Shown in pieces: positions 8,011 to 47,574 of a stretch of DNA of 64,000 nt (its first letter is position 1; each line of letters opens with the position of its first letter). The stretch is from positions 1,237,925 to 1,301,924 of the forward strand of contig OX638322.1 of the NCBI GenBank assembly GCA_951812575.1, in the 5' to 3' direction. The DNA comes from Candidatus Binatia bacterium. Lineage in GTDB: Bacteria; Desulfobacterota; Binatia; Bin18. The notes beneath the pieces are model-generated. The model was not told the origin of the DNA. It ran no database searches and saw only the letters and a program-made list of their open reading frames with translations. The translations under genes and the position numbers were made by a program.

Positions 8011-8023
8011 CGCCTTCCCCCTC

Positions 8024-8310
8024 AAAAATCCCCTCCCCGGAGGGGTGCTGCCTATGGTGTCGATGGCTCCCTACGGCCTGTCCGCTCGTGCCCTCACCCG
8101 GCCCTGCGGGCCACCCTCTCCCAGGGGGCGAGGGTAAAAAAGCTCCTCTCCCGCTGGGAGAGGGGTTGGGGTGAGGGCCAAACCGCCAGACAAGTTCATT
8201 TGCATCATACGTCCCGGAGGGGTGCCGCGTAGCGGCGGGGTGGGTTCCCTGCCCGTCGGCATCACACGTCCCTGGAGGGGTGCCGCGTCCCGACCGGAAG
8301 GGCGTTCCCC
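8024..8310. repeat. Cluster of GC-rich palindromic intergenic repeats between convergent genes
   Basis: AAAAATCCCCTCCCCGGAGGGGTG (8024-8047). Inverted arms GCCCTCACCC (8090-8099) and GGGTGAGGGC (8169-8178) enclose the hairpin CCTCTCCCGCTGGGAGAGG. There is a direct repeat CATCA(T/C)ACGTCCC(T)GGAGGGGTGCCGCGT at 8203 and 8260. The CCCCTCC..GGAGGGGTGGC..GGGGTGGGTTCC unit recurs at 27538-27584. Confidence 0.7.
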
Positions 8311-8353
8311 TGCTCCGTGCCTTATCTCTCGGTGTCCGAGTGTGCGGGCCACG

Positions 8354-8596
8354 TCAGGCTGCACCCTGTCGAATGGTAATGGCCTCGCGCAGGCCATCAA
8401 GCAGCCCTTCGAGGTGGGCCATACGCGCGCGCAGTTCGGTCATCTGCTGCTCCAGGGCCGTAAACCGCTCGTCAAAATACTGACGCTGCGCCGCCAGTTC
8501 GGCGCGGATGGCCCGTTGGCCGCCCAGCATCAACCCGGCCAGGGTCGCCCCCACCGCTACCACGGCTATCAGGACTCCGATCAGTTCGACACCCAT
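8354..8596 (-). CDS. Small membrane-anchored coiled-coil protein (hypothetical)
   Basis: 80 aa. N-terminal hydrophobic helix LIGVLIAVVAVGATLAGLMLGG, then a heptad-like segment FDERFTALEQQMTELRARMAHLEGLLDGL. Confidence 0.45.
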   Translation of the reverse strand: MGVELIGVLIAVVAVGATLAGLMLGGQRAIRAELAAQRQYFDERFTALEQQMTELRARMAHLEGLLDGLREAITIRQGAA

Positions 8597-8792: not shown

Positions 8793-10454
8793 ATGCTCGA
8801 ACGAATCTCGATCCTGTGCCTGAGCCTCGTGCTGGTGAGCGTCTGGGGCTGCTCGGCAACCCTCAGACGCCCCTCGGCCAAAGAATATTATCAGCAGGCA
8901 AGCGACTCTTTCACAGACGAGGACTATCTGGGAGCTTCCGATCAGTACCAGGAGTTGCTGGATCAATACCCACTCAACCCGTACGCTGAGGAAGCCCAGC
9001 TCAAAGCGGCCTATGGGCTGTTTATGGAAGAAAATTACGCCGAAGCCGTTGCGGCCTTTAAGGACTTTGAGCGGGCCTATCCGACCAGCAAGCATATGCC
9101 GTTTGTCAAATATTTTCTCGGTATTACGAATTATAGTCAGATTCGTTCCAAGGATCGTGACCAAGCCGTGACGCGCCGGGCGGACGGATTCTTTCAAGAG
9201 GTCATAGACCGATATCCGGAAAGTGCTTTCGTTCTCGAGGCTGAGGAAAAGAGCAAATCGGCGCGTGACATCCTGGCGGCCCACGAATTGATGGTGGCGA
9301 ACTTTAACGAAAAGCGCGACAATCTGACTGCCACAAAAGCCCGCCTGCGCAGCCTGATTGAGCAATACTCCGAAACGGATGCCACCGTGGAAGCCTTGGG
9401 TCGGCTCGAACAGATATTGAACGAAGAGGGTAACGTCGAGTTGGCCGAGCTGGCGGCCCGCGCTCAGTCTGCACGGAGAGCGGCCAGCCAGGCTCCCAGC
9501 GTGGAACCCCCCTTTTATTCCCCCCTATTAGGGGGGACACAGGGGGGTGAGGACGAGGTGACCGGCTCGGACGGTCTCCTCGTTGCCGGAGTCGATCCGT
9601 TATTGCTGCTCGTTTCCGAACTGAAAAAACAGGAGGAGGCAGAACGCCTGGCCCGGACGGAAGCGGATGCGGAAAGACTGGCAGCAGAAAAAGAGGCCGA
9701 GCAGGAGGAGCGGGCACTTGATGACGCCTTTGACGATGACCGCTCCTACGAAGTGGGTGACGATTATCGGGAAGTAGACTTGGAGGCCTTGGAAGCAGAG
9801 CGGGCCGCCCTGGAGACTCCCGACATTGAGGAGCTGGAATTCGACGTTGAGACAGACGATATCGGACCCTTGGAACTGACCGAGCAGGATGTAAAGAGGG
9901 AAGGTGTCCTTCCATCAGCCAGAGATGCTGGACACGTTTCCTCTTTCTCCGACGAGGACGATATTGATCTTTCTGACGATGACATCCTCACCCTTGACAT
10001 CGAGGACGACGCTATTGCGCTTGAGGAAGATGCTGAAGCCTTGGAAGCCGCTGGGGTGTTGGACGCTGAAGAAGAAGCTGGGGATGTCGTTGAAGAGATT
10101 GCTACAGTCGAGGACATGACTAGCGACGATGAGGTTGAAGGCGGCGCAGAGGTGGCCGAGGCAGAACCTGTCCTGAGCCCAGTCGAAGAGGAAGCCGAGG
10201 ACGACGAGGCAGTTATCGCAGTCGAGCAGAGTGAGCCGGTTGAGCTGGGTGAGTCAGAGGTTGAATACGCTGAAATAATAGATGAGGAGGCCGCCGCTTC
10301 CGACGTGCTCACGAACGGAGATGTCGCACTCAGCAAAAGAGGAAACGTTTCCTCCAATGATAGAGAGAGGCTGGAAACGTTCCCTCTTTCAGGACGGGAG
10401 GCCGTTCTGGGTATCGATATTGAGGAAATAGATTTCGAGTTTGAGGACGAATGA
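8793..10454 (+). CDS. bamD: BamD/YfiO-like outer-membrane assembly lipoprotein with ~330-aa acidic C-terminal extension
   Basis: Lipobox LVSVWGC. TPR-like N-terminal ~220 aa with the BamD-type pattern (YP.NPYAEEAQLK..Y, YPTSKH, RYPESAFV..A, AAHELMVANF). The remainder is D/E-rich low complexity. Confidence 0.65.
   Translation: MLERISILCLSLVLVSVWGCSATLRRPSAKEYYQQASDSFTDEDYLGASDQYQELLDQYPLNPYAEEAQLKAAYGLFMEENYAEAVAAFKDFERAYPTSKHMPFVKYFLGITNYSQIRSKDRDQAVTRRADGFFQEVIDRYPESAFVLEAEEKSKSARDILAAHELMVANFNEKRDNLTATKARLRSLIEQYSETDATVEALGRLEQILNEEGNVELAELAARAQSARRAASQAPSVEPPFYSPLLGGTQGGEDEVTGSDGLLVAGVDPLLLLVSELKKQEEAERLARTEADAERLAAEKEAEQEERALDDAFDDDRSYEVGDDYREVDLEALEAERAALETPDIEELEFDVETDDIGPLELTEQDVKREGVLPSARDAGHVSSFSDEDDIDLSDDDILTLDIEDDAIALEEDAEALEAAGVLDAEEEAGDVVEEIATVEDMTSDDEVEGGAEVAEAEPVLSPVEEEAEDDEAVIAVEQSEPVELGESEVEYAEIIDEEAAASDVLTNGDVALSKRGNVSSNDRERLETFPLSGREAVLGIDIEEIDFEFEDE
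9893..9947. repeat. ~55-bp palindromic interspersed element, copy b (inside the bamD-like CDS)
   Basis: AAAGAGGGAAGGTGTCCTTCC-loop-GGACACGTTTCCTCTTTC. Translated in frame as VKREGVLPSARDAGHVSSFS. Confidence 0.75.
10335..10390. repeat. ~55-bp palindromic interspersed element, copy a (inside the bamD-like CDS)
   Basis: AAAAGAGGAAACGTTTCCTCC-loop-GGAAACGTTCCCTCTTTC. Translated as KRGNVSSNDRERLETFPLS. Confidence 0.8.
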
Positions 10455-10488
10455 GACCTGTCGCCTGGGCAAAGAGTGAGCGTCGCCG

Positions 10489-10521
10489 AGCCTCTTTCCT
10501 CTTGGGAAGAGGCTTTTTATT
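10489..10521 (+). terminator. Rho-independent terminator after the bamD-like gene
   Basis: AGCCTCTT (10489-10496), a 10-nt loop, AAGAGGCT (10507-10514), followed by TTTTATT. Confidence 0.7.
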
Positions 10522-10542
10522 CTATTGGAAAAATAAGACAGC

Positions 10543-11307
10543 ATGAAACACGCCGCAGCCCCTGTTCCAAAGAGCGTCCGTGAGGGAAAAGTCCTGGTGG
10601 TCGGCGTCGGCGGCCTGGGCTCTCCGGCGGCATTGGCGCTCGCCCTGGCCGGGGTGGGAACGATTGGTCTGGTGGATTCGGACCGGGTCGAGCTGTCAAA
10701 CTTGCAACGGCAAATCCTGCACCTTACCCCGGATATTGGAAAGCCAAAGGTCGATTCGGCCAAGGAAAAAATTCAGCAACTCAACCCCGCGATAACAGTG
10801 GTGACCTATAACGAGTGGCTGCATGCGGCTAATCTCGCAGATATCTTTGCCGGCTATGATTTTATTATTGACGGGACGGACGGCGTGGCCACAAAGTTTC
10901 TGATCAATGACGGTGCCGTGCTGCTCAACAAACCACTCTCTCACGCTGGCATTGTCCAATTTCACGGTCAGGCATTGACGGTCTTACCCCATCGGACGAC
11001 GTGTTTGCGTTGCCTGTTCCCGGTCCCGCCTCATCCTGATGAGAATCCCACCTGCCAGGAGGCCGGCATCCTTGGCAGCCTGGCCGGCAGTCTGGGCGGC
11101 GTGCAGGCTGCCGAGGCTGTGAAATACCTGAGCGGAGCGGGGGAACTCCTGACCGACCGCTTACTGACCTATGACGCCCTGGCCTTACGCTGGCGAGAGG
11201 TCCGGGTGCGCCCCAGCCCGCACTGTCCGCTGTGCGGCACGCCGCGGACGATTACGGGCTTACAGCCCGAAGCCTATGAGTTGGAAAGACTCTGCACTCC
11301 TGTCTGA
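10543..11307 (+). CDS. ThiF/MoeB/HesA-family E1-like adenylyltransferase (intact)
   Basis: VLVVGVGGLGSPAALALALAGVGTIGLVDSDRVELSNLQRQILH (GxGxxG plus SNLxRQ). Two CxxC pairs (CLRC, CPLC). No rhodanese domain. Confidence 0.85.
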   Translation: MKHAAAPVPKSVREGKVLVVGVGGLGSPAALALALAGVGTIGLVDSDRVELSNLQRQILHLTPDIGKPKVDSAKEKIQQLNPAITVVTYNEWLHAANLADIFAGYDFIIDGTDGVATKFLINDGAVLLNKPLSHAGIVQFHGQALTVLPHRTTCLRCLFPVPPHPDENPTCQEAGILGSLAGSLGGVQAAEAVKYLSGAGELLTDRLLTYDALALRWREVRVRPSPHCPLCGTPRTITGLQPEAYELERLCTPV

Positions 11308-35203: not shown

Positions 35204-38107
35204 TTAATCTTGTCCGCCCCGCTCCAGCAACGTGAACAGCTCATCGACCATCGCCGTCACCCGCTCAAGCTCCTCTGTCTCCGCGAGAATGGCAAAGGTG
35301 ACCTCCTGGCGCAGTTCGCGGAGCGCACTCTCGCTTTGTTTCCAATTCGGAAAGTCAGAGAAGGCTTGACGAATGGTGCGGCTGACCGCCTCCGCATTGT
35401 CGATCCCGGCATCCGACAGACTCCGATACACGAAATACGTCAGCCCATCAAAGGACTTCTCCGTCTGTTCCTTTTTGCGCGCTTCGTTTTTGTCAACTTC
35501 CTTGAGGAGAGCTTCCAGGGCCTCGGCAGTGCTGGCCTGGCGGCTTTCAAAACTTTCCTGTACGGCCCGGGCGCGCTCGGCCATGGCGATCAGATACGGA
35601 TCGTCGCTGCCTTCCTCCGCCACCTTCTCAATGCTTTTGATCAAGTTGATGACCTGGGTTCCGTCGCTGCCTTGTCGCTTCTTGATGAGCTCAACGGTGT
35701 CCGCATTGATTGCGATGAGTCCTTCGAGCGATTCCACGCCATAGGAACTCACCTGCTCACGGACCAACAGCGCCGTTTTCCTTTGAAACTCCCGGTCGGC
35801 CTGAATCCGTCGTGTGTAAGCCTTGCGCACAACCTGGAAGATTGCGCTTAATGTTCCATACGTTTCCATGAACGGCCGCAGGAAGGCATCCGGCGAGATG
35901 ATCTCATACAGCATCTCGATCTCTTTGTATTCCCGAAAGAACTCTTTCCGCCGCTCAGGGGCGCGGAAGTGCTCAATCAGGATATCGACATCTTGGTCGT
36001 TAAAGGCGTGCTCGATAAGGCCGAGGTATTCCGGCGCTTTCTGCTGCATCTTGTTTTTGAAGAGGACCTTCAGGAGTGTGAGGTCTTTGACGATGGCGTT
36101 GATCTCATCGCTGTCGAAGGCGAGCGCCTTTTCGAGTTTGTCGAAGATACCGACGAAATCGAGGACAAAGCCGTGAGGTTTCACCATCCCCCGCGCCTCG
36201 TTTTCGTAGGGGCGGTTCACCCGGGCGATGGCCTGGAGCAGGGTGTGGTCGCGCATCGGCTTATCGAGATACATGGCGTAGAGCAGCGGCGCGTCAAAGC
36301 CGGTCAGCAGTTTCTCGGTCACGATGAGGATTTTCGGGTTCTGGTCGCGCTTGCCGAAGCGCTTGCGAATTTGCCGCTCCTGCTTCGGGTCAAGGTGAAA
36401 TTTCTTCAGCAACGCGGAGTCGTTGTTGTTCTTGGTGTAAACGACCTCGGAATACTCGGGCGGGAGGAATTCGTCGAGGGCGTGTTTGTAGTAGGCGCAG
36501 GCTTCGCGGTCGACGCCGACGAGGAAAGCCTTGTAACCGAGCGGTTCGACGTTCTCCACGTAGTGTGTGGCCACATACTGCGCCACCTGCGTGATCCGCT
36601 CCTGACTCTTGAGGAAGTTCTTCAAATGAACCGCACGCTCCAGAATCTTGTTGAGTTCTTCAATATCCGCCACCCCCTCGGCCTCGGCCAGGGAGAGAAA
36701 CTCCGCGTCCAGGGTCTCGTGCGGGACGAGCATCTTGTTGGGGGCGAGTTGGTAATAGAGCGGGAGCGTGGTGCCGTCCTCAATGCTGTCGGCAATGGAA
36801 TACTTGTGCAGATAGCCTTGGTCATCCTCGCAGCCGAAGGTCTTGAAGGTGCCCTTGCCATAGGCGGTCTTGTCCACTGGGGTGCCGGTGAAACCGAGAT
36901 AGGTGGCGTTTGGCAGACCGGCCATGAGAAAGTTGCCGAGATCGCCGCCGGTGGTGCGGTGGGCTTCGTCGATGAGGACGTAGATGTTCGAGCGGGTATT
37001 GAGGTCCGCCGGCATGCCGCGGAACTTGTGGATCATCGTGACGATGATGCCCCGATAGTCGTCCTTCAGTAACTGGTTGAGCCGCTCTATGCTGTCGGCG
37101 TGTTCCAGGTTGCCCAAGCCGAGTGCGGCCAGGTTCTTGAGCATCTGGTCTTCCAATTCGTTGCGGTCAATCATGAGGAGGACGGTCGGCTTGTCGGCCT
37201 CGGGCGCGCGGAAAAGTCGCTCTGCCGCTTTGATCATGGTGAAGGTCTTGCCGCTGCCCTGGGTGTGCCAAACGAGGCCACGGGTCCGGTCGGGGGTTAG
37301 GGCGCGTCCAACCGTGGCGTCCACCGCGCCGGTTTGGTGCTGGCGCAGAATGTATTTGTTCAGCTCCTCATCCTTCTCGGCAAAGATGATGTAGTCCTTC
37401 AGGAAGGCGAGCACCTGGGGGATGGCGCAGAAGCTCTTCACCTTGGCCTCCAGCCTGCCGGCCTCGGCATCCTTCCAGTTGAAGATGTTGCGCCGCACCG
37501 TGTTCCAGGTCGCGCCGTAGGAAAAGCCGATGGCGTCGGTGGCGATAAAGAGTTGCTGGGAAATGAACAGCTCGGGGGTCTCGCGGTGGTAACGGCGGAT
37601 TTGATCCACGCCGAGGGCTATCGCCTCGTCTTTGGTGGCGTTCTTACACTCGATGACCAGCACGGGAATGCCGTTGATAAGAAAGACGACATCCTCCCGC
37701 GTACCATAATGGCCGTTGTGACAAGCCCACTCTTCGGTGACTTCGTACACGTTGCGCGTCGGGTCGTTGTAATCGATCAGGATCAGGTCGCGCTCGCGGT
37801 TCTCCTCGTGGTCAAGGAACTTGCCACGGTTGCGCAGGTGCTCGACGAAGTCCCGGTTGCCGTAGATATCGGTGTGGAAATGTCGTAACTGGCCGAGCAA
37901 GGTGTCCTCGGCCTCGGTATAGCGCGGGTTGAATTCCCGTACTTTGGCGTCAAGCAAATCGTCGAAGAAAAGCGACAAGGGAGGGGAGGCAGGAGTCCTT
38001 CCTCTCCTTTGCTCGGCTTGCTCGCGGGGCACAAACGTCCAACCAATAGCCTCGGCGTATGTGAGGATGCGGGCTTGGACGGTTTTGTGTTCGGTAGGGG
38101 TGGGCAT
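35204..38107 (-). CDS. hsdR: Type I restriction enzyme R subunit
   Basis: N-terminal PD-(D/E)xK (DVVFLINGIPVLVIECK). Helicase motifs HTQGSGKTFTM and VLIDEAHRT. 967 aa. Confidence 0.95.
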   Translation of the reverse strand: MPTPTEHKTVQARILTYAEAIGWTFVPREQAEQRRGRTPASPPLSLFFDDLLDAKVREFNPRYTEAEDTLLGQLRHFHTDIYGNRDFVEHLRNRGKFLDHEENRERDLILIDYNDPTRNVYEVTEEWACHNGHYGTREDVVFLINGIPVLVIECKNATKDEAIALGVDQIRRYHRETPELFISQQLFIATDAIGFSYGATWNTVRRNIFNWKDAEAGRLEAKVKSFCAIPQVLAFLKDYIIFAEKDEELNKYILRQHQTGAVDATVGRALTPDRTRGLVWHTQGSGKTFTMIKAAERLFRAPEADKPTVLLMIDRNELEDQMLKNLAALGLGNLEHADSIERLNQLLKDDYRGIIVTMIHKFRGMPADLNTRSNIYVLIDEAHRTTGGDLGNFLMAGLPNATYLGFTGTPVDKTAYGKGTFKTFGCEDDQGYLHKYSIADSIEDGTTLPLYYQLAPNKMLVPHETLDAEFLSLAEAEGVADIEELNKILERAVHLKNFLKSQERITQVAQYVATHYVENVEPLGYKAFLVGVDREACAYYKHALDEFLPPEYSEVVYTKNNNDSALLKKFHLDPKQERQIRKRFGKRDQNPKILIVTEKLLTGFDAPLLYAMYLDKPMRDHTLLQAIARVNRPYENEARGMVKPHGFVLDFVGIFDKLEKALAFDSDEINAIVKDLTLLKVLFKNKMQQKAPEYLGLIEHAFNDQDVDILIEHFRAPERRKEFFREYKEIEMLYEIISPDAFLRPFMETYGTLSAIFQVVRKAYTRRIQADREFQRKTALLVREQVSSYGVESLEGLIAINADTVELIKKRQGSDGTQVINLIKSIEKVAEEGSDDPYLIAMAERARAVQESFESRQASTAEALEALLKEVDKNEARKKEQTEKSFDGLTYFVYRSLSDAGIDNAEAVSRTIRQAFSDFPNWKQSESALRELRQEVTFAILAETEELERVTAMVDELFTLLERGGQD

Positions 38108-38119
38108 CTCTTGTCTTTC

Positions 38120-39265
38120 CTACCTTTTCTTGGCGTTCCCAGGACGCTTTGCGGGTAATCCAATGGCCACGCCCAGTTCTTTCGCCGTTGGCAGTTTGCC
38201 TTTCAGTTCCTTCGGCAAGGTTGGCTTCAGCTGATATTCCGCCACTCCGATCGGGTTAACTTTCGACTTCAGCGCGAATTCGACTTCGACATCATCCTTT
38301 TCCGCGCAGAGGATAATCCCGATGGACGGGTTGTCATCAGTCGCCCGTTCCTTTTCATTCAGCACATTCAGATAGAAATCCATCTTGCCGGCGAACTCCG
38401 GCTTAAACTCGCCGATCTTCAGTTCAATGGCGACGAGGCATTTGAGGAAGCGATGATAGAAGAGCAGATCAATGAAGTATTCCTTCTTCCCGGCCACCAC
38501 TCGATGTTGCCTGCCGATGAAACAGAAACCGTAGCCGAGTTCCAGGATGAAATCCTTCAACTGCTCAATCAGCTTGTCTTCCAGCTCCCGTTCCTTAATC
38601 TCCCGACCGATGCCAAGAAATTCCAGGTTGTAGGAACTCTTCAGCGCTTCCTCCGCCTGCTCGGCGAGGTACTCCGGCAGAGCGAGAGGGAAATTGTGTA
38701 CTTTTCCTTCAGCTAGGCTGCGCCCGTAGGCATCCGCTTTGATCTGGTTCAGCAGAACAGCTCTCGTCCAACCAAACTGAGCAGTTGCTCGGAGGTAGTA
38801 AAGTCGTTCTCGTGGCGCCTTCACTTTCTTGGTGATCTCAACAAGGTGCCCCCAAGGCACTGGCGACAGAACTTCTTGAACAAGCTGTTCAAGAATTGCC
38901 GATTCTCCCACGGCCGCTTCCGGGGAATCCAATCGCTGCGACAGAACTTCTTGAACAAGCTGTTCAAGAATTGCCGGGGAACTGTATTCCGAGTAAAACT
39001 GCCGCATAAGCCAGAGGTTATTGGCAGAAACCCCCTTCATCCCTGGAAACTCTGCCCTCAAATCCAAGGACAATTGCTCCACCACCGACTTCCCCCAACC
39101 CAACTCTCCCTGCTTCTCTACGATTCCGCGTCCGATGTCCCAGTAGAGCAGGATCAGGTCGCGGTTCACCGAGCGCGCCGCCGAGATCCGCGCCGACTGA
39201 ATCCGCGATTTTACTTCGCCCAGCCAAGCGGTGTAGTCAGGAGATGGCGTCAGTTTGTCAGGCAT
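38120..39265 (-). CDS. DUF1016/YhcG-like PD-(D/E)xK nuclease-fold protein
   Basis: AARSVNRDLILLYWDIGRGIVEKQ...WG..VVEQLS.DL...FPG.KG.S..NL..MR.FY and a C-terminal IDLLFYHR.L.C.VAIELK. Confidence 0.8.
   Translation of the reverse strand: MPDKLTPSPDYTAWLGEVKSRIQSARISAARSVNRDLILLYWDIGRGIVEKQGELGWGKSVVEQLSLDLRAEFPGMKGVSANNLWLMRQFYSEYSSPAILEQLVQEVLSQRLDSPEAAVGESAILEQLVQEVLSPVPWGHLVEITKKVKAPRERLYYLRATAQFGWTRAVLLNQIKADAYGRSLAEGKVHNFPLALPEYLAEQAEEALKSSYNLEFLGIGREIKERELEDKLIEQLKDFILELGYGFCFIGRQHRVVAGKKEYFIDLLFYHRFLKCLVAIELKIGEFKPEFAGKMDFYLNVLNEKERATDDNPSIGIILCAEKDDVEVEFALKSKVNPIGVAEYQLKPTLPKELKGKLPTAKELGVAIGLPAKRPGNAKKR
38863..38975. repeat. In-frame 75-bp tandem duplication inside the DUF1016 gene
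   Basis: The 38-nt perfect repeat GCGACAGAACTTCTTGAACAAGCTGTTCAAGAATTGCC occurs at 38863-38900 and 38938-38975. In the protein this gives AILEQLVQEVLS twice. Confidence 0.85.
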
Positions 39266-39341
39266 AGTCTTTCACGAAAACAAGCTGCGATGGCGTTCTG
39301 TGGTTGAGGCAAATTCATTCCACTTTGTTGCTGTAATTGAT

Positions 39342-39612
39342 CAGGGTGTTCGACGAATTCCCGGTTGGTGTGGAAATGTCGTAACTGGCCGAGCAAGGTG
39401 TCCTCGGCCTCGGTATAGCGCGGGTTGAATTCCCGCACTTTGGCGTCAAGCAGGTCGTCGAAGAAAAGCGACAAGGGAGGGGAGGGAGGGGAGGCAGGAG
39501 TACCCCTTCTCCGTTGCTCGGCCTGCTCGTGAGGTACAAATGTCCACCCGATGGCCTGGGCGTATGTGAGGATGCGGGCCTGGACGGTTTTGTGCTCGGA
39601 GGGAAGAGGCAT
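39342..39612 (-). pseudogene. hsdR: Remnant of an hsdR 5-prime end (first ~90 codons)
   Basis: MPLPSEHKTVQARILTYAQAIGWTFVPHEQAEQRR...LSLFFDDLLDAKVREFNPRYTEAEDTLLGQLRHFHT parallels the N-terminus of the intact HsdR. It includes a 69-nt run identical to 37871-37939. Homology stops near 39342. Confidence 0.85.
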
Positions 39613-39646
39613 GAGATCTAGTTTGCTTCAGAACCCAAATGGTGAG

Positions 39647-41908
39647 TCATTTCTCTACATCCTCCTCGCGTGCGGGTTCGACAGGAATGACTTGTTCATC
39701 GATTCTATTTGGAACGTCATTTGTGATAATGTTTCCAATGATTCCCAGGACAAGTACCAAAATAATTGAGGACCAAAGCCACGCCCGAAATCGACTTATC
39801 TGCTGAAACGGCCAGAGCTGGTTAAACGCCTCATTTCGTTTCACGCATGCCTCAATAATTAAGTGGAGGAGGACGAAGACGAAAACGCCAATAATGATTT
39901 GAAAGGGAATGGTGCCAATTAATTTTGTCAATAGCTGGACTTTTCCAGCCAGCCAGCCTCCAAATACCGAGATCAAGAGGACACCAGCGAAAAGGAAACT
40001 ATATTTGACGAAAGCACCCTTTTTCGCCTGCTCGATCTTGCTGTCATTGAGTCGATTTGAAATCTCTTCGATCTTCTGATCTTGCTCTTGGAGTTTGGAG
40101 TTCGCCAACGCAATCTCTGTCTTCTCAGCAGCCACACGCGCTTGCAGTTTCTTGATCTCCTTTTCCTTTCCAGCGGACTCAGACATCAAAGTTAGAATCT
40201 GGGAATCCCGAGCTTTGACCTCCGTGTCCAAATTCTCTGCGCGATTCTTTTCTTTCTCGGCTTGAGCCTGTATTTCCTCTACGAGCGCGTCCCGAATCAG
40301 TTTGGCTTCCACGTCTTTGTTCTGTTCGGAACCCAATCGAGCTCGCAGTTCTTCGTTAAGCATGACCTGGCTAATAGATTCCTCAGAGATATGCTCATTT
40401 CCCTCAAACTGGCCAATTCTTTTCAAGATTCGAAGACTTATGCGTTCGGCTTCCGGATCGAAATCCTGAAATAAGAATGGCAGCCGCATGCTGCCGAGGA
40501 TCGCTTCTTCAAACTCTGGTGTCCGGGGAACCCAGAATTGAAGAAGCTGAATTAGTGATGTGGGATGAACGCAGATCGGAACAGAGGCACCCTGGCTTTT
40601 ACGCTTGCGCTCATCGAATCCGATAAATCGAAAATCTAACGTAAGGATCCAGTCTTGGGCGTCGACTGGTGACTCGACGTAGCTCGGCCGATTGTCATTA
40701 ACAAGGTGCCAAAGAACCATGTCGTGCTGAACCATTTCAAATGACTTAGCACGAAGTCCCCTGTCTTTTTCAGATTCTAAAACAGTGTGAATATCATCAA
40801 CTACGTCCTGGCGAACTACGTAATCGTCGAGCTCTTCATTGTATAGCTTGACACCTTTGTCTCGTGCTAAAAGGACAAAGTTATCCAGGTAAGGGTCGAA
40901 CCAATCACCAACTGACAATTCCTCTGACCTGTCAGCCTGCTCATTGAGAAATCTCGCGAGGAGCCCCGAAAATCTGACGTGTGATGCAGCCCCGGCAAAG
41001 TTGGTTCCGGCAGGAAGTCCAGCAAGGCGGTATTTAGCTGATGAGATGGAACGCTTTGCCTCGTCAATCGTTCGCGGCGTCACATAAAGATCAATTTTCA
41101 GATTCGAGTTTAACGAATCAATCAGGTCTTTCAGCTCGGTTGCTGCCGAATTAGAAGGATTATCATGCAGATTCAAAATTGAAAACAGGAAGTTTGTATC
41201 AACAAACACACGGAATCTGATCCTCTTGCCCGCACTGGATCTCAACTTTGTAATCACGCTGTCTGGTAAACCGCTCGCTGCGACACAAAATGTAGCGTGA
41301 AGCGTCCGGCTGATGTATGACCTCACTGCTTCGTTCTTCGGATCAAGAAAGCGCGAGATCAGTTCCAATAACTGGGTTTCAATATTCGAGTCGAATTCCT
41401 CCTGAAACTCGCGAACGAGTTTCTTGTTAACCGTCATTTCTTCACCGGCGATTAGCTTGTAGGCGTTCGCTCCTATTTCGCGAATGAGCGGCGCAAGAAA
41501 GACGGATTCAAATTTGCTCCACGCCTCCTCAGGTGAGAGATCATTACAAAGCTCTTTAACTAGCTCGAAAAAAAATTCTTTTGCGACCCGGCCCGAGTTT
41601 TCTGCAGACGCGATTTCTTCCTCAAAAACAGACTGTTTGCTATCAGGAATGCGAAACTCGTCGTTTGAGAGTCGAATCAGAAAATCCTGTGATTCGAGCA
41701 CTTTTATTACAGACTCGACCTTTGCTACGCTCACGGATAGGGCGAATGCCGATTCCAAGATTGTTCGAATCTTGTCGACTGATGGATTGTTGTCGGCAAG
41801 CCAAACAGAAGCAAGAATCAGACGCTGCATGGCTTTATCCCACCAACCATCTCTATGCAACTCAACGTGGTGGACGATAGCAGCCAACAGTTTGGAAGTG
41901 GAATTCAT
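39647..41908 (-). CDS. PIN-like domain protein with coiled coil and three C-terminal transmembrane helices (unknown function, R-M embedded)
   Basis: RFRVFVDTNFLFSIL, YVTPRTIDEAKR, VQHDMVLWH (PIN-like acidic pattern). Coiled coil at ~590-660. TM helices FLFAGVLLISVFGGWLAG, IPFQIIIGVFVFVLLHLII and LWSSIILVLVLGIIGNII. 13-nt gap to the hsdS stop. Confidence 0.55.
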   Translation of the reverse strand: MNSTSKLLAAIVHHVELHRDGWWDKAMQRLILASVWLADNNPSVDKIRTILESAFALSVSVAKVESVIKVLESQDFLIRLSNDEFRIPDSKQSVFEEEIASAENSGRVAKEFFFELVKELCNDLSPEEAWSKFESVFLAPLIREIGANAYKLIAGEEMTVNKKLVREFQEEFDSNIETQLLELISRFLDPKNEAVRSYISRTLHATFCVAASGLPDSVITKLRSSAGKRIRFRVFVDTNFLFSILNLHDNPSNSAATELKDLIDSLNSNLKIDLYVTPRTIDEAKRSISSAKYRLAGLPAGTNFAGAASHVRFSGLLARFLNEQADRSEELSVGDWFDPYLDNFVLLARDKGVKLYNEELDDYVVRQDVVDDIHTVLESEKDRGLRAKSFEMVQHDMVLWHLVNDNRPSYVESPVDAQDWILTLDFRFIGFDERKRKSQGASVPICVHPTSLIQLLQFWVPRTPEFEEAILGSMRLPFLFQDFDPEAERISLRILKRIGQFEGNEHISEESISQVMLNEELRARLGSEQNKDVEAKLIRDALVEEIQAQAEKEKNRAENLDTEVKARDSQILTLMSESAGKEKEIKKLQARVAAEKTEIALANSKLQEQDQKIEEISNRLNDSKIEQAKKGAFVKYSFLFAGVLLISVFGGWLAGKVQLLTKLIGTIPFQIIIGVFVFVLLHLIIEACVKRNEAFNQLWPFQQISRFRAWLWSSIILVLVLGIIGNIITNDVPNRIDEQVIPVEPAREEDVEK

Positions 41909-41921
41909 GGGTGACGCAATC

Positions 41922-43235
41922 CTAATCCGTTGGCGTGTTAACCCTAGTCTTCGCGGTCATCAGTTCGTGAAGAAGGGTGCGGAAGAGAGATTGAAGAGCA
42001 TCTCTCTTCTCTTGGTGTTTCTGTATCTTCTCTTCCACGCCGTGGATGGCGTTCGCGATCTCGACCTGCTCGTCGTAGGTGGGACTTGGAATCTTTAGTG
42101 CGGAAATCTCGTTCTTGTTGTAGTTGGCCTGATTGACGGCTCTACGAGCGAGCTTTACGAATACGCTTTCCTCCCTGTAGTGATTCATCAAGTGTTTAAG
42201 AAAGTAGTTGTGGGACTTTTTTTCACCAGTGCAGATCCGCAGGATAAACGAGGCAAAGATATACTTCTCATTTTGCGTATGAAAGATGGTGCTTTTCCCG
42301 ATTAGCGGAGGGCTATTGCGCCAGTTGAAGAGGACGTCGCCATCGTTCAGCGTGAGCCGGGTGGCGGTCTTTTCTGGGACTTCAATCCGGCGAATTTTCC
42401 CGTAAAGCAGGTTTCCTTGTTTATCGATATCGGCAGTACTAACGATCTTCACACCATCCGCAGGTGGTGTTTTTGGGATCGCTTGAGAGACACCATAGTC
42501 TATGAACTCAACTGTCTCAATTAGCGGGACCACCTCCCAACTTTCGGGCATGGGACCGATTTCAGTTTGTTTTCGGGGTTCGTTGCGAAGGCCTTCGGTG
42601 AAGAGCTTGTGCATGAGAGTCTTTTTCAGCTCGGTGGTGGCCTGAATGATCCGCTCCTGCGCTTCGATCGCCCGCTGCACCGTCGAAAGGATGTGCGCGA
42701 TCTTCTTCTGCTCGGGGAGCGGAGGTAGCGGAACCGTGATGCGGTAGAAACTCTTTGGATCCACACGTTGACGACTCGGTGTGGAACCAGAGACCAGCGT
42801 TTTCGCGATGGGCATAACGTGGTCGGACCATTCAAGGAAGTAAAGGAAGTCAGGATCGACTCGCTCATCAGGAAGAATGGGAATCCACTCCGTTGATCCA
42901 ATTTGACGAAATTCAGATGACTCGGCAACGCGCCACACTTTTTCCACTCTCGGATTCAGTTTGCCGAAAAGGACTGTCTTTGGTTCCAGAAGTAGCTTGG
43001 AACTCTCTATTGCATCGCCCGCAGTGAGACTTGGGGTCTGACCGCGCTGATAGTCGGGGATGCTGTAATACTCAAACGTCTCGTCGGCGAAGTTCTTTGG
43101 AGTCAGTGTTGGCGCTTTCCGAATGTTAATATCACCAAGAGCGATGATATCCCAATCATCGGGAAGATTTTCGAGAAGTATGCTCATACCCCAATCCTCT
43201 CCGGTCCAATCGGGAGGAAGTTCTTTGTACAACAC
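41922..43235 (-). CDS. hsdS: Type I restriction enzyme specificity subunit
   Basis: Two target-recognition halves separated by the conserved helices PLPPLPEQKKIAHILSTVQRAIEAQERII and IPSPTYDEQVEIANAIHGVEEKIQ. Confidence 0.9.
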   Translation of the reverse strand: MLYKELPPDWTGEDWGMSILLENLPDDWDIIALGDINIRKAPTLTPKNFADETFEYYSIPDYQRGQTPSLTAGDAIESSKLLLEPKTVLFGKLNPRVEKVWRVAESSEFRQIGSTEWIPILPDERVDPDFLYFLEWSDHVMPIAKTLVSGSTPSRQRVDPKSFYRITVPLPPLPEQKKIAHILSTVQRAIEAQERIIQATTELKKTLMHKLFTEGLRNEPRKQTEIGPMPESWEVVPLIETVEFIDYGVSQAIPKTPPADGVKIVSTADIDKQGNLLYGKIRRIEVPEKTATRLTLNDGDVLFNWRNSPPLIGKSTIFHTQNEKYIFASFILRICTGEKKSHNYFLKHLMNHYREESVFVKLARRAVNQANYNKNEISALKIPSPTYDEQVEIANAIHGVEEKIQKHQEKRDALQSLFRTLLHELMTAKTRVNTPTD

Positions 43236-43318
43236 GCCCGTTGCGATGTCGGCCCTATTGTTCCACCCAATCGTTCCCCTCCGAGCGTCGCCCTGTGCCG
43301 CCGACGATGGAGCTATGC

Positions 43319-43996
43319 TCAGCGATTCAAGTTCTCCAATTTACTTACCCATTCGTTGAAGAGCGGGCATGACTCGCGCATTCTATCAATTCCGATTTCC
43401 TGAGCGATGCCGATACCAGTCACGGTCTTCTTGAATCGGTCAGACAAGCCTTCCAACTGCTTGGATGGAGCAGTCTGGGGATTGTCGTTGATCTTCTCCG
43501 GTTCGTCGTCGTATCCAGAAAGAATTTTCTGCACCTCTTCTGGCCGAACATTCAATTTTCGGGCCAGAATTTCGGCATCACTGAAGAGCAGTGCCTCAAA
43601 CTCGAACATCGAAACATAGGGTATGAATCGCCGCTGTGCATATTGATCGCTGAAGAGTTCGTTTACCCGCTTCCGGGTCGCTTCGTTCATCACTCGCGCC
43701 TTCGATGTGTGGCGTCTTTTACGTTTTGACTCCTCGTAGCCGGGCCAATCACCCTTAATACCGAAGTAATCGACAAGCAACGTCAGCCAGGTTTCGTTTC
43801 TTTGCTTGAGATGGCGTTCAATGTCGTTTCTGGCCCGCGAAAAACGAACGTCACCGCCCTTCTGGCCGGGCTTTGTCAGGATAATCGGGGTGATGTAGAC
43901 CTCTGTCCGCGCGAGATAGGGACCTAAAATATCTTGGACAAAGATTCTCTCGGTCGGGCCTTCGACCAGCGCTACCACCTCGGCGGTCCTACTCAT
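43319..43996 (-). CDS. DUF4276-like (Toprim-like) protein
   Basis: MSRTAEVVALVEGPTERIFV (conserved E), LTLLVDYFG, FIPYVSMFEFEALLFSD. Its ATG overlaps the ATPase stop (TATGAGTAG). The ORF-track start 44056 is rejected. Confidence 0.6.
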   Translation of the reverse strand: MSRTAEVVALVEGPTERIFVQDILGPYLARTEVYITPIILTKPGQKGGDVRFSRARNDIERHLKQRNETWLTLLVDYFGIKGDWPGYEESKRKRRHTSKARVMNEATRKRVNELFSDQYAQRRFIPYVSMFEFEALLFSDAEILARKLNVRPEEVQKILSGYDDEPEKINDNPQTAPSKQLEGLSDRFKKTVTGIGIAQEIGIDRMRESCPLFNEWVSKLENLNR

Positions 43997-45095
43997 AAAC
44001 CGGCCCCCCCGAGATGACGTTTTTACTCCACAGTTCGCCCACGGAATAACTTTCAAGCCATGCTCGATAGTCCTCTTCGTTCAGGCGTTCAAACGTGGAC
44101 GCGCCCCTTTTCCGGTTGACCACAACGACATCCTCAACCGAGAAGTTGTCGATCAGTGCCGGTGACTGTGTCGCCACGATGAGCTGGGTGCGCTTCGAGG
44201 CGTTTTGAATCAGCTCTGCCAAAATGCTGATTGCGGCAGGATGGAGTCCCAACTCCGGTTCGTCAATGATTAAGGAAGAGGGAAGGTCGGGTTGCAATAA
44301 GGCGGTTGCCAGACAGATAAACCGGATACTGCCGTCGGAGAAATGATACGGCTGCATCGGGTAATCCGAGCCCTTGGCGTGCCAGGAAAGCGCCACCTTC
44401 CTTTTCGGTCCGAAGCTTTCTACGTCAAGGAGAAAATCATCGAGACAGGGAATCACCAATTTACAGGACTGGAGAATTTCTTGGTACGTTTCCTCGTCCC
44501 TTTTTTTGAGTCTCCGCAAGAATGGCGCAATATTCGAGGCATCGAAACGCAGAGTCTTGTTGTCTTGCACGATCTCTGCATGCCGCATTGCCGCCGTCTC
44601 GCTCGTGTCGTGAAAATGATAGATTTTCCATGAAGCAATGGACTCATATACTGGCCTGCTGTATTGGGCGTCATGGGCCTTTTCTTTTGCCTCTTTCACA
44701 AGCAAGGGTTGTCCATCCGGACTGTCTCCTAGCTCCCACCATTTCGTCATCCCGTGCCCATAGTAACGAGCTTCGTCTGTCAGCGCACAACCTTCGGATG
44801 GGCCGGGTTTGATAGTAAAACGGTATCCGCGTGACCCGAAGCGCGTTTCAAACTTGAGGCGTTTTGTGACCCTTCGTCCGTTAAAGAGGAGGTCGCTGAT
44901 TCCCCCGCTGTCTCGAACGTAGTCATTCAGATTTCCGTTGATGAGTGCTTGCAGCAGGCGGAAAAAGGCAATGAGGTTGCTTTTTCCCGTGCCATTGGCA
45001 CCGATTAACACATTCAGGCTCTTGATCTCAAAATTTTCCAGCTCACGGATAGATTTGAATCCTCGTATCGTCAGTCTGTCTAAAGGGTCTCCCAT
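43989..45095 (-). CDS. ABC/SMC-like AAA ATPase partnered with DUF4276
   Basis: Start taken at MGDPLDRLTIRGFKSI. Walker A LIGANGTGKSN, signature-like FSDGSIRF, Walker B LIIDEPELGLHP. The ORF-track N-terminal extension overlaps hsdM. Confidence 0.8.
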   Translation of the reverse strand: MGDPLDRLTIRGFKSIRELENFEIKSLNVLIGANGTGKSNLIAFFRLLQALINGNLNDYVRDSGGISDLLFNGRRVTKRLKFETRFGSRGYRFTIKPGPSEGCALTDEARYYGHGMTKWWELGDSPDGQPLLVKEAKEKAHDAQYSRPVYESIASWKIYHFHDTSETAAMRHAEIVQDNKTLRFDASNIAPFLRRLKKRDEETYQEILQSCKLVIPCLDDFLLDVESFGPKRKVALSWHAKGSDYPMQPYHFSDGSIRFICLATALLQPDLPSSLIIDEPELGLHPAAISILAELIQNASKRTQLIVATQSPALIDNFSVEDVVVVNRKRGASTFERLNEEDYRAWLESYSVGELWSKNVISGGPVYE

Positions 45096-45118
45096 ATCAA
45101 AGTCCCCCGTTTGTTTGC

Positions 45119-46666
45119 TTATACCCCAATCTTCCCCAGAATCTGCCGCAATACCGTGTCCGTTTCCCGCGCCTCGGCTTCGATAACGTCGAGTTCGGCC
45201 ACAATCTCCGCAAGCGGCCGGTAGGTCTCCGCGTCGTCGGTGTGAATGTAGCGACTGGGGGAGATGTTGTAGTCGTTTTTCTTCAGCTCCGCGTGATCGA
45301 CAATGCGGCTGAGTTTTTCCTCTTCCTGCCACCCTATCAGGGTGTCGGCGATACGGGTGATACCCTCGGGTGGGATGAAGTTCTTGGGGTCGCCCTTCTC
45401 GAAGACCCGGCTGGCATTAACGAGAAAGACTTTGCCCTGCCGGGCTTTTGGCTTGGCCTTGTTGAGGAACAGGACGATACCTGGGGCTGTGGTGTTGTAG
45501 AAGAGGTTTTCGGGCAGATAGAGGACGCTCTCGATGAGGTCCTGCTCAACAAACCACTGACGGACGGTTTTTTCCTTGTTGGTGCCGGCATTGCCCGAGC
45601 CTCGGGAGGCGGCACCGGTGTCGAGGACGACGGCAGCGCGACCTTCGGCATTGAGGCTGGCGTGCATGTGCTGGACCCAGCCCCAGTCGGCGGAAGATTT
45701 TCCGGGGAAACCGGGCGGGAAGCGGTCGAATTCGTCATTGTCGTAGTCGGCCTCAGTGTACCAGTCCTGATTCCACATGGGATTGGCGACGACGCGATCG
45801 AAAGTACGCAGCTTGCCGTTTTTTTCGGCGCGGAACTTGGGGTTCTTGAAGGTGTCGCCGATCTCGATCTGGCCCTCCATGTCGTGGATGATCATATTCA
45901 TGTTGGCCATGGCCCAGGTCTCGGGGATGTATTCCTGGCCGAACAGTTTGAGAGGCGGGTATTGCGTCTTGTCGGCGGCTGTCATTTTCGCTTCCATGGC
46001 GAGCTCGCACTTGATGAGAAGGCCGCCGGAGCCGCAGGTGGGGTCGTAGATTTCCATACCCGGATCAGGCACGAGGACGCGGGCGATGATCTCGCCGACC
46101 TCGCCGGGGGTGTAGAACTCGCCGGCACTCTGACCGCTGCCCTCGGCGAACTTGCGGATAAGGTATTCGTAGCTCTTGCCGATGATGTCGGCCTCAACGT
46201 CCTCAAGCCCGAGGCGCTTGGTGCTGATGGCCTCAATGAGGTTGGAGAGGCGGTCGTCGTCGAGGTCGCGCTGGCCGTGGGTGGTCGCGTTGAAGTCCAC
46301 GCGGTCGATGATGCCTTGCAGGGGCGGGTTTTCCCTGGCGATGGCCCGCATGTGGCTGGTGACGCCTTCGCCGATCTTGTCCGAGAGCTTGCGAATGACG
46401 GACCAGACCGGCTGTTCGGGATCGTCCGGCATGAGGGGGAGGTAGAAGCGGACAAGCTTGTGGTCGGCTCCGGCGAGCTGGAAGGCTTTCTTGCGCGAGC
46501 CGACCTTGGCGTCGATGCGGTTCAGTTCATCATCAAAGACATCGCACAGGCGTTTGGTGAAAATAAGGGGCAGGATGTAGTCCTTGTATTTCGGTGCGTC
46601 CTTGGCCCCACGGATGGAGCAGGCGGCGTCCCATATCCAGGATTCCAAGGATTTGAAGTGGGACAA
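45119..46666 (-). CDS. hsdM: Type I restriction enzyme N6-adenine methyltransferase subunit
   Basis: HsdM_N-like N-terminus (LWDAACSIRG..D...YKDYILPLIF.KRL), AdoMet motif YDPTCGSGGLL, catalytic ANPMWNQ. Confidence 0.95.
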   Translation of the reverse strand: MSHFKSLESWIWDAACSIRGAKDAPKYKDYILPLIFTKRLCDVFDDELNRIDAKVGSRKKAFQLAGADHKLVRFYLPLMPDDPEQPVWSVIRKLSDKIGEGVTSHMRAIARENPPLQGIIDRVDFNATTHGQRDLDDDRLSNLIEAISTKRLGLEDVEADIIGKSYEYLIRKFAEGSGQSAGEFYTPGEVGEIIARVLVPDPGMEIYDPTCGSGGLLIKCELAMEAKMTAADKTQYPPLKLFGQEYIPETWAMANMNMIIHDMEGQIEIGDTFKNPKFRAEKNGKLRTFDRVVANPMWNQDWYTEADYDNDEFDRFPPGFPGKSSADWGWVQHMHASLNAEGRAAVVLDTGAASRGSGNAGTNKEKTVRQWFVEQDLIESVLYLPENLFYNTTAPGIVLFLNKAKPKARQGKVFLVNASRVFEKGDPKNFIPPEGITRIADTLIGWQEEEKLSRIVDHAELKKNDYNISPSRYIHTDDAETYRPLAEIVAELDVIEAEARETDTVLRQILGKIGV

Positions 46667-46876
46667 AAAGAACCTCCCGTATCAGTTTATTGAGACTCCA
46701 GGTTCCGCGACAGGCAGCGGCTTGCTTGGGTCTCCCGACTTTCTTTCAGGTAACATTTCAACAACCTGTAGTCGAATTTAAGGCGACAACAGGCTCATCA
46801 ATCAACCCCTGGAGTGCCCTGCGTTGCTGATGGCCGCTGGCTATCTGTATAATATGGTCTTGCCGTACTCTCTCAT

Positions 46877-47143
46877 ATGGGTAATATGGGAGAGATGAAA
46901 ACGACCCTTGATATCCACGACGAACTTCTGGCACGGGCGAAACGTCATGCCAAGAAGACGGGCCGCCCCTTGCGCGCCGTGGTTGAGGACGGGCTCCGAC
47001 AGGTGCTTGCTGCGTCTCCCTCCCGGAACCGCTATCGGCTGCCCGATTTGAGCACCGGCCATGCCGGCGCGGAGGACCCTCTTGAGGTCTATTCGTGGCA
47101 GGACCTGCGCGGGTTGATCTACGGAGAGACTGAAACACGATGA
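46877..47143 (+). CDS. vapB: VapB-type antitoxin
   Basis: MKTTLDIHDELLARAKRHAKKTGRPLRAVVEDGLRQVL. Its stop overlaps the vapC ATG (ATGA). The true start may be ATG 46895. Confidence 0.75.
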   Translation: MGNMGEMKTTLDIHDELLARAKRHAKKTGRPLRAVVEDGLRQVLAASPSRNRYRLPDLSTGHAGAEDPLEVYSWQDLRGLIYGETETR

Positions 47144-47574
47144 TTGCTGTCGATACGAACCTGCTCGTCTACGCCCACCGCAAGGAATCCCGCGTGCATG
47201 AAGCCGCCTTTGCGATTGTGCGGACGCTTGCCGAGGGGAACCAGGTGTGGGCGATTCCCTGGCCCTGCTGCTACGAATTCCTGAGTGTCGTAACAAACCC
47301 TCGAATTTGGAAAGACGCGGCAACATCGCCGGAGCGTGCATGGCGGCAACTCGAAGCCTGGACCACCTCGCCAAATAATCGTCTGCTCGGCGAGACCGAC
47401 GACTTTCTCAAGGTATTGAGCGATCTCGTGCAGCGGCCGCGGGTGCGCGGTGCGGTCGTCCACGATGCCCGGATCGCCGCGCTCTGCCTGGCCCACGGTA
47501 TTGAAGCGCTCCTCACCCGTGACCGTGATTTCTCGCTATTTCCAGAACTGCGAACACGAGATCCGTTCGGTTAG
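47140..47574 (+). CDS. vapC: VapC PIN-domain toxin
   Basis: MIAVDTNLLVYAH....HE.A ... HDARIAALCLAHG...LLTRDRDF. Confidence 0.85.
   Translation: MIAVDTNLLVYAHRKESRVHEAAFAIVRTLAEGNQVWAIPWPCCYEFLSVVTNPRIWKDAATSPERAWRQLEAWTTSPNNRLLGETDDFLKVLSDLVQRPRVRGAVVHDARIAALCLAHGIEALLTRDRDFSLFPELRTRDPFG

Follow-up and report, generated by a model that had tools for sequence, protein, structure and literature searches.

The closest described counterpart of the gene pair considered here is HEC-01, which Payne, Hughes, Fineran and Jackson (bioRxiv 2024, 10.1101/2024.01.29.577857) described as an ATP-binding cassette (ABC) ATPase and a TOPRIM-like protein embedded in Hma systems, with a conserved metal-binding site on alignment to Burkholderia OLD. 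The same study reported that BREX, DISARM and type I restriction-modification (R-M) systems often hold embedded genes, and seven of its nine Hma-embedded candidates were validated. Here we analyzed a 64,000-nt stretch of DNA from a Candidatus Binatia bacterium (contig OX638322.1; hereafter the window, in whose coordinates all positions are given), in which a type I R-M operon encloses a gene for an ABC-type ATPase and one for a DUF4276 protein; this pair and all the genes from hsdM to hsdR are on the minus strand. As in HEC-01, two genes, an ABC ATPase gene followed by one for a Toprim-like protein, are nested in a multi-gene restriction-like system. HEC-01 was defined from Hma-embedded cassettes, whereas the host here is a type I R-M system of a Binatia-like lineage, with the pair inserted between hsdM and hsdS.

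Several other systems share parts of this design. The Mad3/Mad4 pair of MADS, from Pseudomonas aeruginosa SMC4386, likewise combines an AAA_21-type ATPase with a DUF4276 protein in a methylation-associated operon, and is the only DUF4276 pair we found in the literature with gene-by-gene genetic evidence for defense: deletion of either mad3 or mad4 lowers defense, each being required, and deletion of the methylase gene mad5 is possible only in combination with that of mad2 or mad3; the authors require MAD6–8 for detection of the system (10.1101/2023.03.30.534895). PARIS (AriA/AriB) resembles the pair in its OLD-ABC/AAA_15-21 ATPase, its separate Toprim nuclease gene and its sensor–effector logic, but AriB is a DUF4435 protein where the partner here is DUF4276, AriA has 464 aa against 368 aa for the window ATPase, and no phage-borne copies of the present pair were found. 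Burman et al. (Nature 2024) placed DUF4276 among the partners of AAA15/21 ATPases. OLD and Gabija GajA also join an ABC ATPase to Toprim chemistry, and the LVEGxTE motif of the DUF4276 protein aligns with P2 Old 390–400; in those proteins, in contrast, a single polypeptide comprises both the ATPase and the Toprim part, and Gabija needs the GajB helicase, whereas here the genes are separate and overlapping and the DxD motif is absent. Finally, defense or abortive-infection genes lying between restriction subunit genes are familiar from PrrC in the prr locus, the Rlo genes and the BREX/BR dyads; a BREX survey (NAR 2026 gkag035) terms OLD-ABC plus nuclease dyads "backup effectors" nested in restriction-like systems. 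PrrC differs in that its ABC ATPase is fused to an anticodon nuclease, and RloB was not matched in the window.

Assignment and layout of the pair

Profile searches revealed matches over essentially the whole length of both proteins. The 368-aa ATPase (43989–45095) matched Pfam AAA_21 over the full model (E 5.5e-37) and the HEC-01A model of PADLOC-DB v2 (PDLC04175; E 5.2e-134; residues 3–365 of 368, model 4–362 of 363). The 225-aa product of the second gene (43319–43996), a putative Toprim-like nuclease, matched Pfam DUF4276 (PF14103; E 3.7e-51; 174.5 bits against a cut-off of 30.2; model 1–192 of 192) and HEC-01B (PDLC04188; E 4.8e-72; residues 5–224 of 225, model 13–227 of 230), whereas no NCBIfam model matched it. 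The two genes are adjacent and on the same strand, as in the HEC-01 gene arrangement. Because both matches, to HEC-01A and to HEC-01B, are full length, the pair is, by homology, a bona fide member of the catalogued candidate phage-defense system HEC-01. The sequence-only reading had named the same two protein families and the same ATPase plus Toprim defense logic, which the literature also attaches to such pairs; its expectation that the pair was uncharacterised, unless already catalogued under another name, gave way, since HEC-01 is in PADLOC, was described by Payne et al. in 2024 and has already been assayed.

The ATPase also gave weaker, partial PADLOC matches to AriA, mad3, AbiLi, NsnB, Old and GajA, which reflect a common OLD-ABC/AAA_15-21 ATPase clade. 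Assignment to each of the related systems was rejected. For MADS, the ATPase scored 90.3 bits against an NCBIfam MAD3 cut-off of 420, the DUF4276 protein had no mad4 match, and none of the other genes among the eight scanned from hsdR to hsdM (35204–46666) was MADS-like in Pfam, PADLOC or NCBIfam. For PARIS, the PADLOC AriA model matched the C-terminal half of the ATPase (E 7e-34) and AriA models covered only part of the protein, with neither an AriB match in PADLOC nor a DUF4435 match in Pfam. OLD class 1 and Gabija were set aside on account of the two open reading frames (ORFs) and of Old and GajA models that matched only about 60–90 residues around Walker B; no UvrD-like helicase was found with Pfam among the eight scanned proteins. 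RloA/RloB and AbiL were likewise rejected, as RloB (PF13707) gave no match even at E ≤ 10 and AbiLi matched the ATPase weakly (E 1.3e-22).

The ATPase ORF runs from an ATG at 45095 to a TAG stop at 43989–43991. Its Walker A motif, GANGTGKSN, occupies residues 32–40 (G32–N40, with K38; 44976–45002), the ABC signature is S253-D-G-S256, and Walker B, LIIDEPELGLHP, begins at residue 275, with LIIDEP at residues 275–280 (44256–44273) contributing D278 and E279; the protein ends in GELWSKNVISGGPVYE. The two Walker motifs and the C-terminus agree with those first read from the letters. The ATG of the DUF4276 gene (43994–43996) lies within the 3' end of the ATPase gene, ...TATGAGTAG, and its ORF ends at 43319. 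The two genes thereby share the 8-nt overlap ATGAGTAG (43989–43996, minus strand), in which the DUF4276 start codon falls inside the last ATPase codons and stop. This is consistent with translational coupling, and a GGGGG-type Shine-Dalgarno-like run precedes each ATG of the pair. In the encoded DUF4276 protein, VEGPTE corresponds to residues 11–16 (43949–43966) and VDYFG to residues 75–79 (43760–43774).

An alignment of 81 ATPase sequences revealed that GANGxGKSN, SDGSxRFICL and the Walker B/D-loop segment IIDEPELGLHP are invariant or nearly so. T309-Q310-S311 (TQS; 44166–44174, in the region of residues 308–310) is invariant across all 81. Q310 thus places a Gln at what we take, from the general register of ABC ATPases, to be the position of the H-loop His.

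The pair does separate hsdM from hsdS, as had been proposed together with the tight coupling of its genes. The stop of hsdM (45119–46666; type I methyltransferase, 515 aa; Pfam N6_Mtase E 3.9e-88 and HsdM_N E 5.3e-19) lies 23 nt upstream of the ATPase ATG, and hsdS (41922–43235; specificity subunit, 437 aa; two stretches of Pfam Methylase_S, E 9.2e-20) starts 83 nt downstream of the DUF4276 gene. Farther downstream, hsdR (35204–38107) encodes an apparently intact 967-aa restriction/translocase subunit with HSDR_N, SWI2_SNF2, ResIII and T1R_D3-like matches in Pfam, so that hsdM, hsdS and hsdR of the host system are all present and full length. On the coding strand, a consensus scan predicted neither promoter-like nor terminator-like sequences in the hsdM–pair and pair–hsdS gaps, and the pair is probably co-transcribed with the type I R-M operon. 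No Rfam match was found in or near the pair. The G+C fraction is about 0.50–0.54 over the pair, compared with 0.59–0.64 in hsdM and about 0.58–0.61 in the flanks, which bears out the earlier remark that the pair is AT-richer than hsdM, in round figures 0.52 against 0.59.

Toprim-like features and the proposed mode of action

The alignment of 30 DUF4276 homologs (57–88% identical to the window protein) revealed invariant E12, G13, T15, E16, D49, N57, D58, D76, D83-W-P-G86, E132, E134, E167, N170 and D171. E12 lies within LVEGPTE, so that the Glu expected at the end of Toprim strand 1 is present throughout. An AlphaFold2 (AF2) model of the protein (pLDDT 83.4, pTM 0.81) has strands alternating with helices; its four strands comprise residues 5–11, 33–39, 70–75 and 124–128, and E12, D76 and E132/E134 directly follow strands 1, 3 and 4, respectively. 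These are the strands after which the acidic residues of a Toprim fold are expected. Sub-threshold matches to OLD-like_TOPRIM (PF20469) were found at residues 5–24 in 27 of the 30 members (best E 2.9e-4). An hhalign comparison with the single P2 Old sequence placed EVVALVEGPTE in register with EEVLLVEGKTE at 390–400 (E 0.013, with a probability of only 3.4%), the Glu motif alone being aligned.

Published structural alignments favor Toprim for DUF4276 (Payne et al., 10.1101/2024.01.29.577857; Menshen paper, NAR 2025), and the Menshen paper places DUF4276 and RloB in the Toprim superfamily, treats Mad4 as a DUF4276 homolog, and describes the E plus DxD for its DUF4276 domains. The Toprim assignment of the window protein depends mainly on these published comparisons, to which the present data add partial evidence.

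One further segment of the protein is conserved. Residues of about 167–180, EKINDNPQTAPSKQL (in the region of 43463–43498), form an invariant E-x-I-N-D...A-P-S-K in the C-terminal helical part. A sequence search of the DUF4276 profile against Protein Data Bank (PDB) chains gave nothing meaningful; its best match, a weak one, was between this motif and a stretch of RNase HII that contains INDSKQLSPAKR (E 0.047). The resemblance to RNase HII is probably due to chance.

Taking the two proteins together, we consider it most likely, with somewhat more confidence than doubt, that the pair works as a second line of defense against phages or plasmids in the manner of OLD and PARIS, in which the ATPase would be the sensor and the Toprim-like nuclease the effector. 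The ATPase oligomer would bind and restrain the DUF4276 nuclease and serve as an infection sensor; a phage cue, together with ATP binding or hydrolysis, would free or activate the nuclease, which would then cut nucleic acid by means of E12, D76 and the acidic cluster E132/E134. The target might be tRNA, by analogy with PARIS, or else DNA, which OLD and Gabija cut, and the outcome would be either a halt to phage replication or abortion of the infected cell. Complex formation, trigger, substrate and abortive outcome are all inferred from PARIS, OLD and Gabija, and the published PARIS mechanism backs the sensor–effector analogy. Support for HEC-01 as a defense system comes from a cold-seep study (Nat Commun 2026, PMC12881386), which reports that one HEC-01, cloned into E. 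coli B, conferred protection from one or more of the phages T7, T5 and T4.

A number of observations weigh against this sensor–effector reading. The HEC-01 representative assayed by Payne et al. (10.1101/2024.01.29.577857) gave E. coli no protection against the BASEL and classic coliphages. The positive result in PMC12881386 is one heterologous spot assay of a different homolog, and neither a fold reduction for HEC-01 nor mutant controls are stated in the text consulted. No homolog was found among 50,697 phage records, a contrast with PARIS, for which carriage by phages or satellites is common. The invariant Gln at the expected H-loop position might mean that ATP hydrolysis is slow, switch-like or absent. 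As for the nuclease, the 30-sequence alignment contains no literal Toprim DxD: the site is D76-Y-[Y/F]-G, with a single invariant Asp, and among the remaining conserved acidic residues D83, E132 and E134 might stand in for the missing one. Of the two Toprim-like features noticed at the outset, the VEGPTE glutamate accordingly held, whereas the acidic motif VDYFG proved to contribute D76 but no DxD. In addition, a Foldseek search of the DUF4276 model against the PDB returned no structure at E ≤ 1e-3, with PARIS AriB (8ux9_A) in 19th place at E 0.14.

Distribution across relatives and alternative roles

Homologs fell into more than 800 clusters at E ≤ 1e-5, and the window proteins were 94–97% identical to those of Candidatus Binatia metagenome-assembled genomes. 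We compared 80 related genome loci in which both genes were resolved (proteins 50–97% identical). The ATPase gene was followed by an adjacent DUF4276 gene in all 80, and the 8-nt overlap, in the form ATGAnTnn, was kept in 71, which is more than a chance feature; it is also present in the RefSeq annotations of plasmid pHX3 and of the large plasmid of Desulfotalea. The identities of the ATPase and of the DUF4276 protein to the window proteins co-varied across the 80 loci (Pearson r 0.78). Separately, locus L010 has a second, divergent HEC-01-type ATPase gene directly upstream of the pair (7225–8529, plus strand; 23% identical), for which the best PADLOC match, PDLC04144, is a model of ATPase length that bears the label HEC-01B.

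Comparison with five relatives gave dN/dS of 0.11–0.29 for both genes, which are under purifying selection. These values, with two window ORFs that are full length and retain every family-invariant residue, make it very improbable that the pair is a decaying passenger whose genes look intact but whose function has been lost in this genome. Such a passenger would find a precedent in the closest relative, Candidatus Binatia OZ246888.1 (locus L005), where an in-frame TAG (TGG to TAG) replaces the invariant W84 of the DWPG motif in the DUF4276 gene (10001–10678 of that locus); the ATPase is intact there and 97% identical. The nonsense codon either is a fault of the assembly or reflects the loss of an effector that was costly to keep; as a single case, it would fit a costly or toxic effector.

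Analysis of the neighborhoods revealed two recurrent contexts. The order hsdM–pair–hsdS was found in about 10 loci of Binatia and Nitrospirales, in which the hsdM–pair–hsdR unit is 69–97% identical across phyla, compared with only 34–56% for hsdS. The order MTase_III–pair–REase_III, that is, mod and res genes of type III R-M, was found in 13 loci and also on the conjugative Aeromonas veronii plasmid pHX3; upstream of it, several loci have a gene for a DrmD-like SNF2 helicase. Loci L084, L085, L015, L018 and L153 (the last being pHX3) exemplify this Mod-like/Res-like context. Altogether, 23 of the 80 loci have the pair immediately behind a methyltransferase gene, which belongs to one or other of the two R-M types. 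In about 55 others the neighbors did not recur and included alaS, oxidoreductase genes, and genes for a PIN_12 and an AAA_16 protein; one plasmid copy was preceded by a helix-turn-helix (HTH) gene alone. No R-M neighbor was detected with the probes used in these roughly 55 loci, which argues for autonomy of the pair. The cassette is thus autonomous enough to occur alone, yet the frequency with which it is inserted right behind a methyltransferase gene is striking.

The methyltransferase association raises the question of whether the pair, rather than acting as the independent second-line module favored above, could be an accessory of the adjacent methylation-based system in the manner of MADS, for example a nuclease acting on unmodified DNA that is licensed or restrained by the neighboring methyltransferase. 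In addition to the recurrent position after methyltransferase genes of two R-M types, including that on pHX3, this possibility would draw on the short distance to hsdM (23 nt, with no terminator predicted on the coding strand in the gap), on the identity of the hsdM–pair unit across Binatia and Nitrospirales (73–97%) while hsdS and the hsdS–hsdR cargo vary, and on the genetics of MADS, in which mad3 and mad4 are each required and mad5 is deletable only with mad2 or mad3. Although it is the leading alternative, we regard it as unlikely. The roughly 55 loci without a detectable R-M neighbor include copies beside alaS or oxidoreductase genes or a plasmid HTH gene; locus L006 keeps hsdM and the pair with no hsdS or hsdR detected within 10 kb downstream; the intact hsdR already provides the R-M system with its own nuclease; and the ATPase, at 90 bits, falls far below the MAD3 cut-off, while mad4 is unmatched.

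A different coupling to the host enzyme is suggested by the placing of the cassette immediately 3' of the modification gene, both in two unrelated kinds of R-M (type I in the window, type III elsewhere) and in MADS. The ATPase might monitor the M (or M2S) complex, such that binding or inactivation by an anti-restriction protein (an Ocr/ArdA-type DNA mimic) would fire the DUF4276 nuclease; that the pair senses inhibition of the R-M complex had been raised in the sequence-only reading, and we hold this speculative arrangement to be doubtful. Equally doubtful is its extension, in which a PARIS-like response would be physically coupled to the R-M enzyme and the Gln at the H-loop position would mark a slow, switch-like sensor.

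Homologs are carried by 13 plasmids, and their presence on conjugative plasmids accords with another role in which phage sensing plays no part: selfish addiction or stabilization, in a toxin–antitoxin-like manner that would retain the R-M island, or DNA repair and end processing. The Pfam label of AAA_21 ("putative AbiEii toxin, Type IV TA system"), the VapBC genes and other mobile cargo of the island (see below), and the negative outcome of the first direct phage test of HEC-01 (Payne et al.) point in the same direction. We judge such a role improbable, since embedding in R-M, Hma and BREX-type systems strongly predicts defense, as illustrated by the validation rate of the Hma-embedded candidates (7/9); one HEC-01 has reportedly given a positive plaque assay, the Mad3/Mad4 homologs act in defense, and the pair shows no sign of an antitoxin-like labile partner. 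A second-line defense module, with an ATPase sensor and a nuclease effector, is the role we continue to favor.

Other embedded genes and the restriction-modification landing pad

The host operon contains two more embedded genes. The gene at 39647–41908 (minus strand), 13 nt after hsdS, encodes a 753-aa protein with a PIN-like FVDTN motif, for which no assignment was found in Pfam, PADLOC or NCBIfam. A search for homologs revealed 454 clusters at E ≤ 0.001, of which the best 120 are 46–65% identical over their full length; the FVDTN motif is invariant in the family, and matches to PIN_3 and PIN_12 are weak. The structural model comprises an N-terminal region like PadR/IclR regulators, a long helix of about 120 residues and hydrophobic helices at the C-terminus, and Foldseek gave no significant global match for it, only a local PadR/IclR-type likeness over about 95 columns. 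In individual look-ups and 61 metagenome loci, most of the members with an identity of 46% or more were encoded in type I systems, in the interval that separates hsdM/hsdS from hsdR. The protein thus apparently represents an uncatalogued R-M-embedded candidate effector, and is a newer side finding than the pair itself.

The third embedded gene, just upstream of hsdR (38120–39265, minus strand), encodes a YhcG/DUF1016 PD-(D/E)xK protein (YhcG_C E 2.9e-61; DUF1016_N E 4.1e-39; PADLOC PDC-S02 E 2e-130). It is preceded by a 120-aa ORF (39250–39612, minus strand) in which roughly 300 nt from the 5' end of hsdR are repeated; recombination at the start of hsdR, by which a cassette was inserted or exchanged, may have left this duplicate as a scar.

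Comparison of operons whose hsdM and hsdR are 93–97% identical (L001, L004 and L005 with the window, 38107–41922) showed that the slot between hsdS and hsdR is hypervariable. It holds a SIR2_2 protein of 1287–1295 aa and MNT/HepT in L001 and L005, an insertion sequence (IS) element and a 625-aa SMC_N-like protein in L004, and the 753-aa protein and YhcG in the window. The slot between hsdM and hsdS holds HEC-01 in all four. The window hsdS is 34–38% identical to the hsdS of loci with hsdM and hsdR in this same identity range.

Beside hsdM, on the plus strand, lie genes for a VapB-like antitoxin (46877–47143) and a PIN (VapC) toxin (47140–47574), which overlap by 4 nt; this pair marks the edge of a defense and mobile island of roughly 35204–47574. 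No tRNA gene was found within the window. Well outside the island, an Rfam match to 5_ureB_sRNA (RF02514; 58861–59159, plus strand; 90 bits, full model) is, in this lineage, most likely just the signature of a urease subunit gene and not of an sRNA.

The locus is a compact R-M landing pad with three embedded cargos, namely HEC-01, the 753-aa PIN-like protein and YhcG/PDC-S02, and its pair is a further instance of catalogued HEC-01, in line with the well-described tendency of restriction systems to house modules of an OLD-ABC ATPase and a Toprim protein. The same cassette follows the methyltransferase gene in type I and type III operons and travels with these operons across phyla (Binatia and Nitrospirales), yet it is also found free-standing. 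Embedded and free-standing copies together offer a clean comparison between an independent back-up defense and one that is wired to the R-M system of its host.

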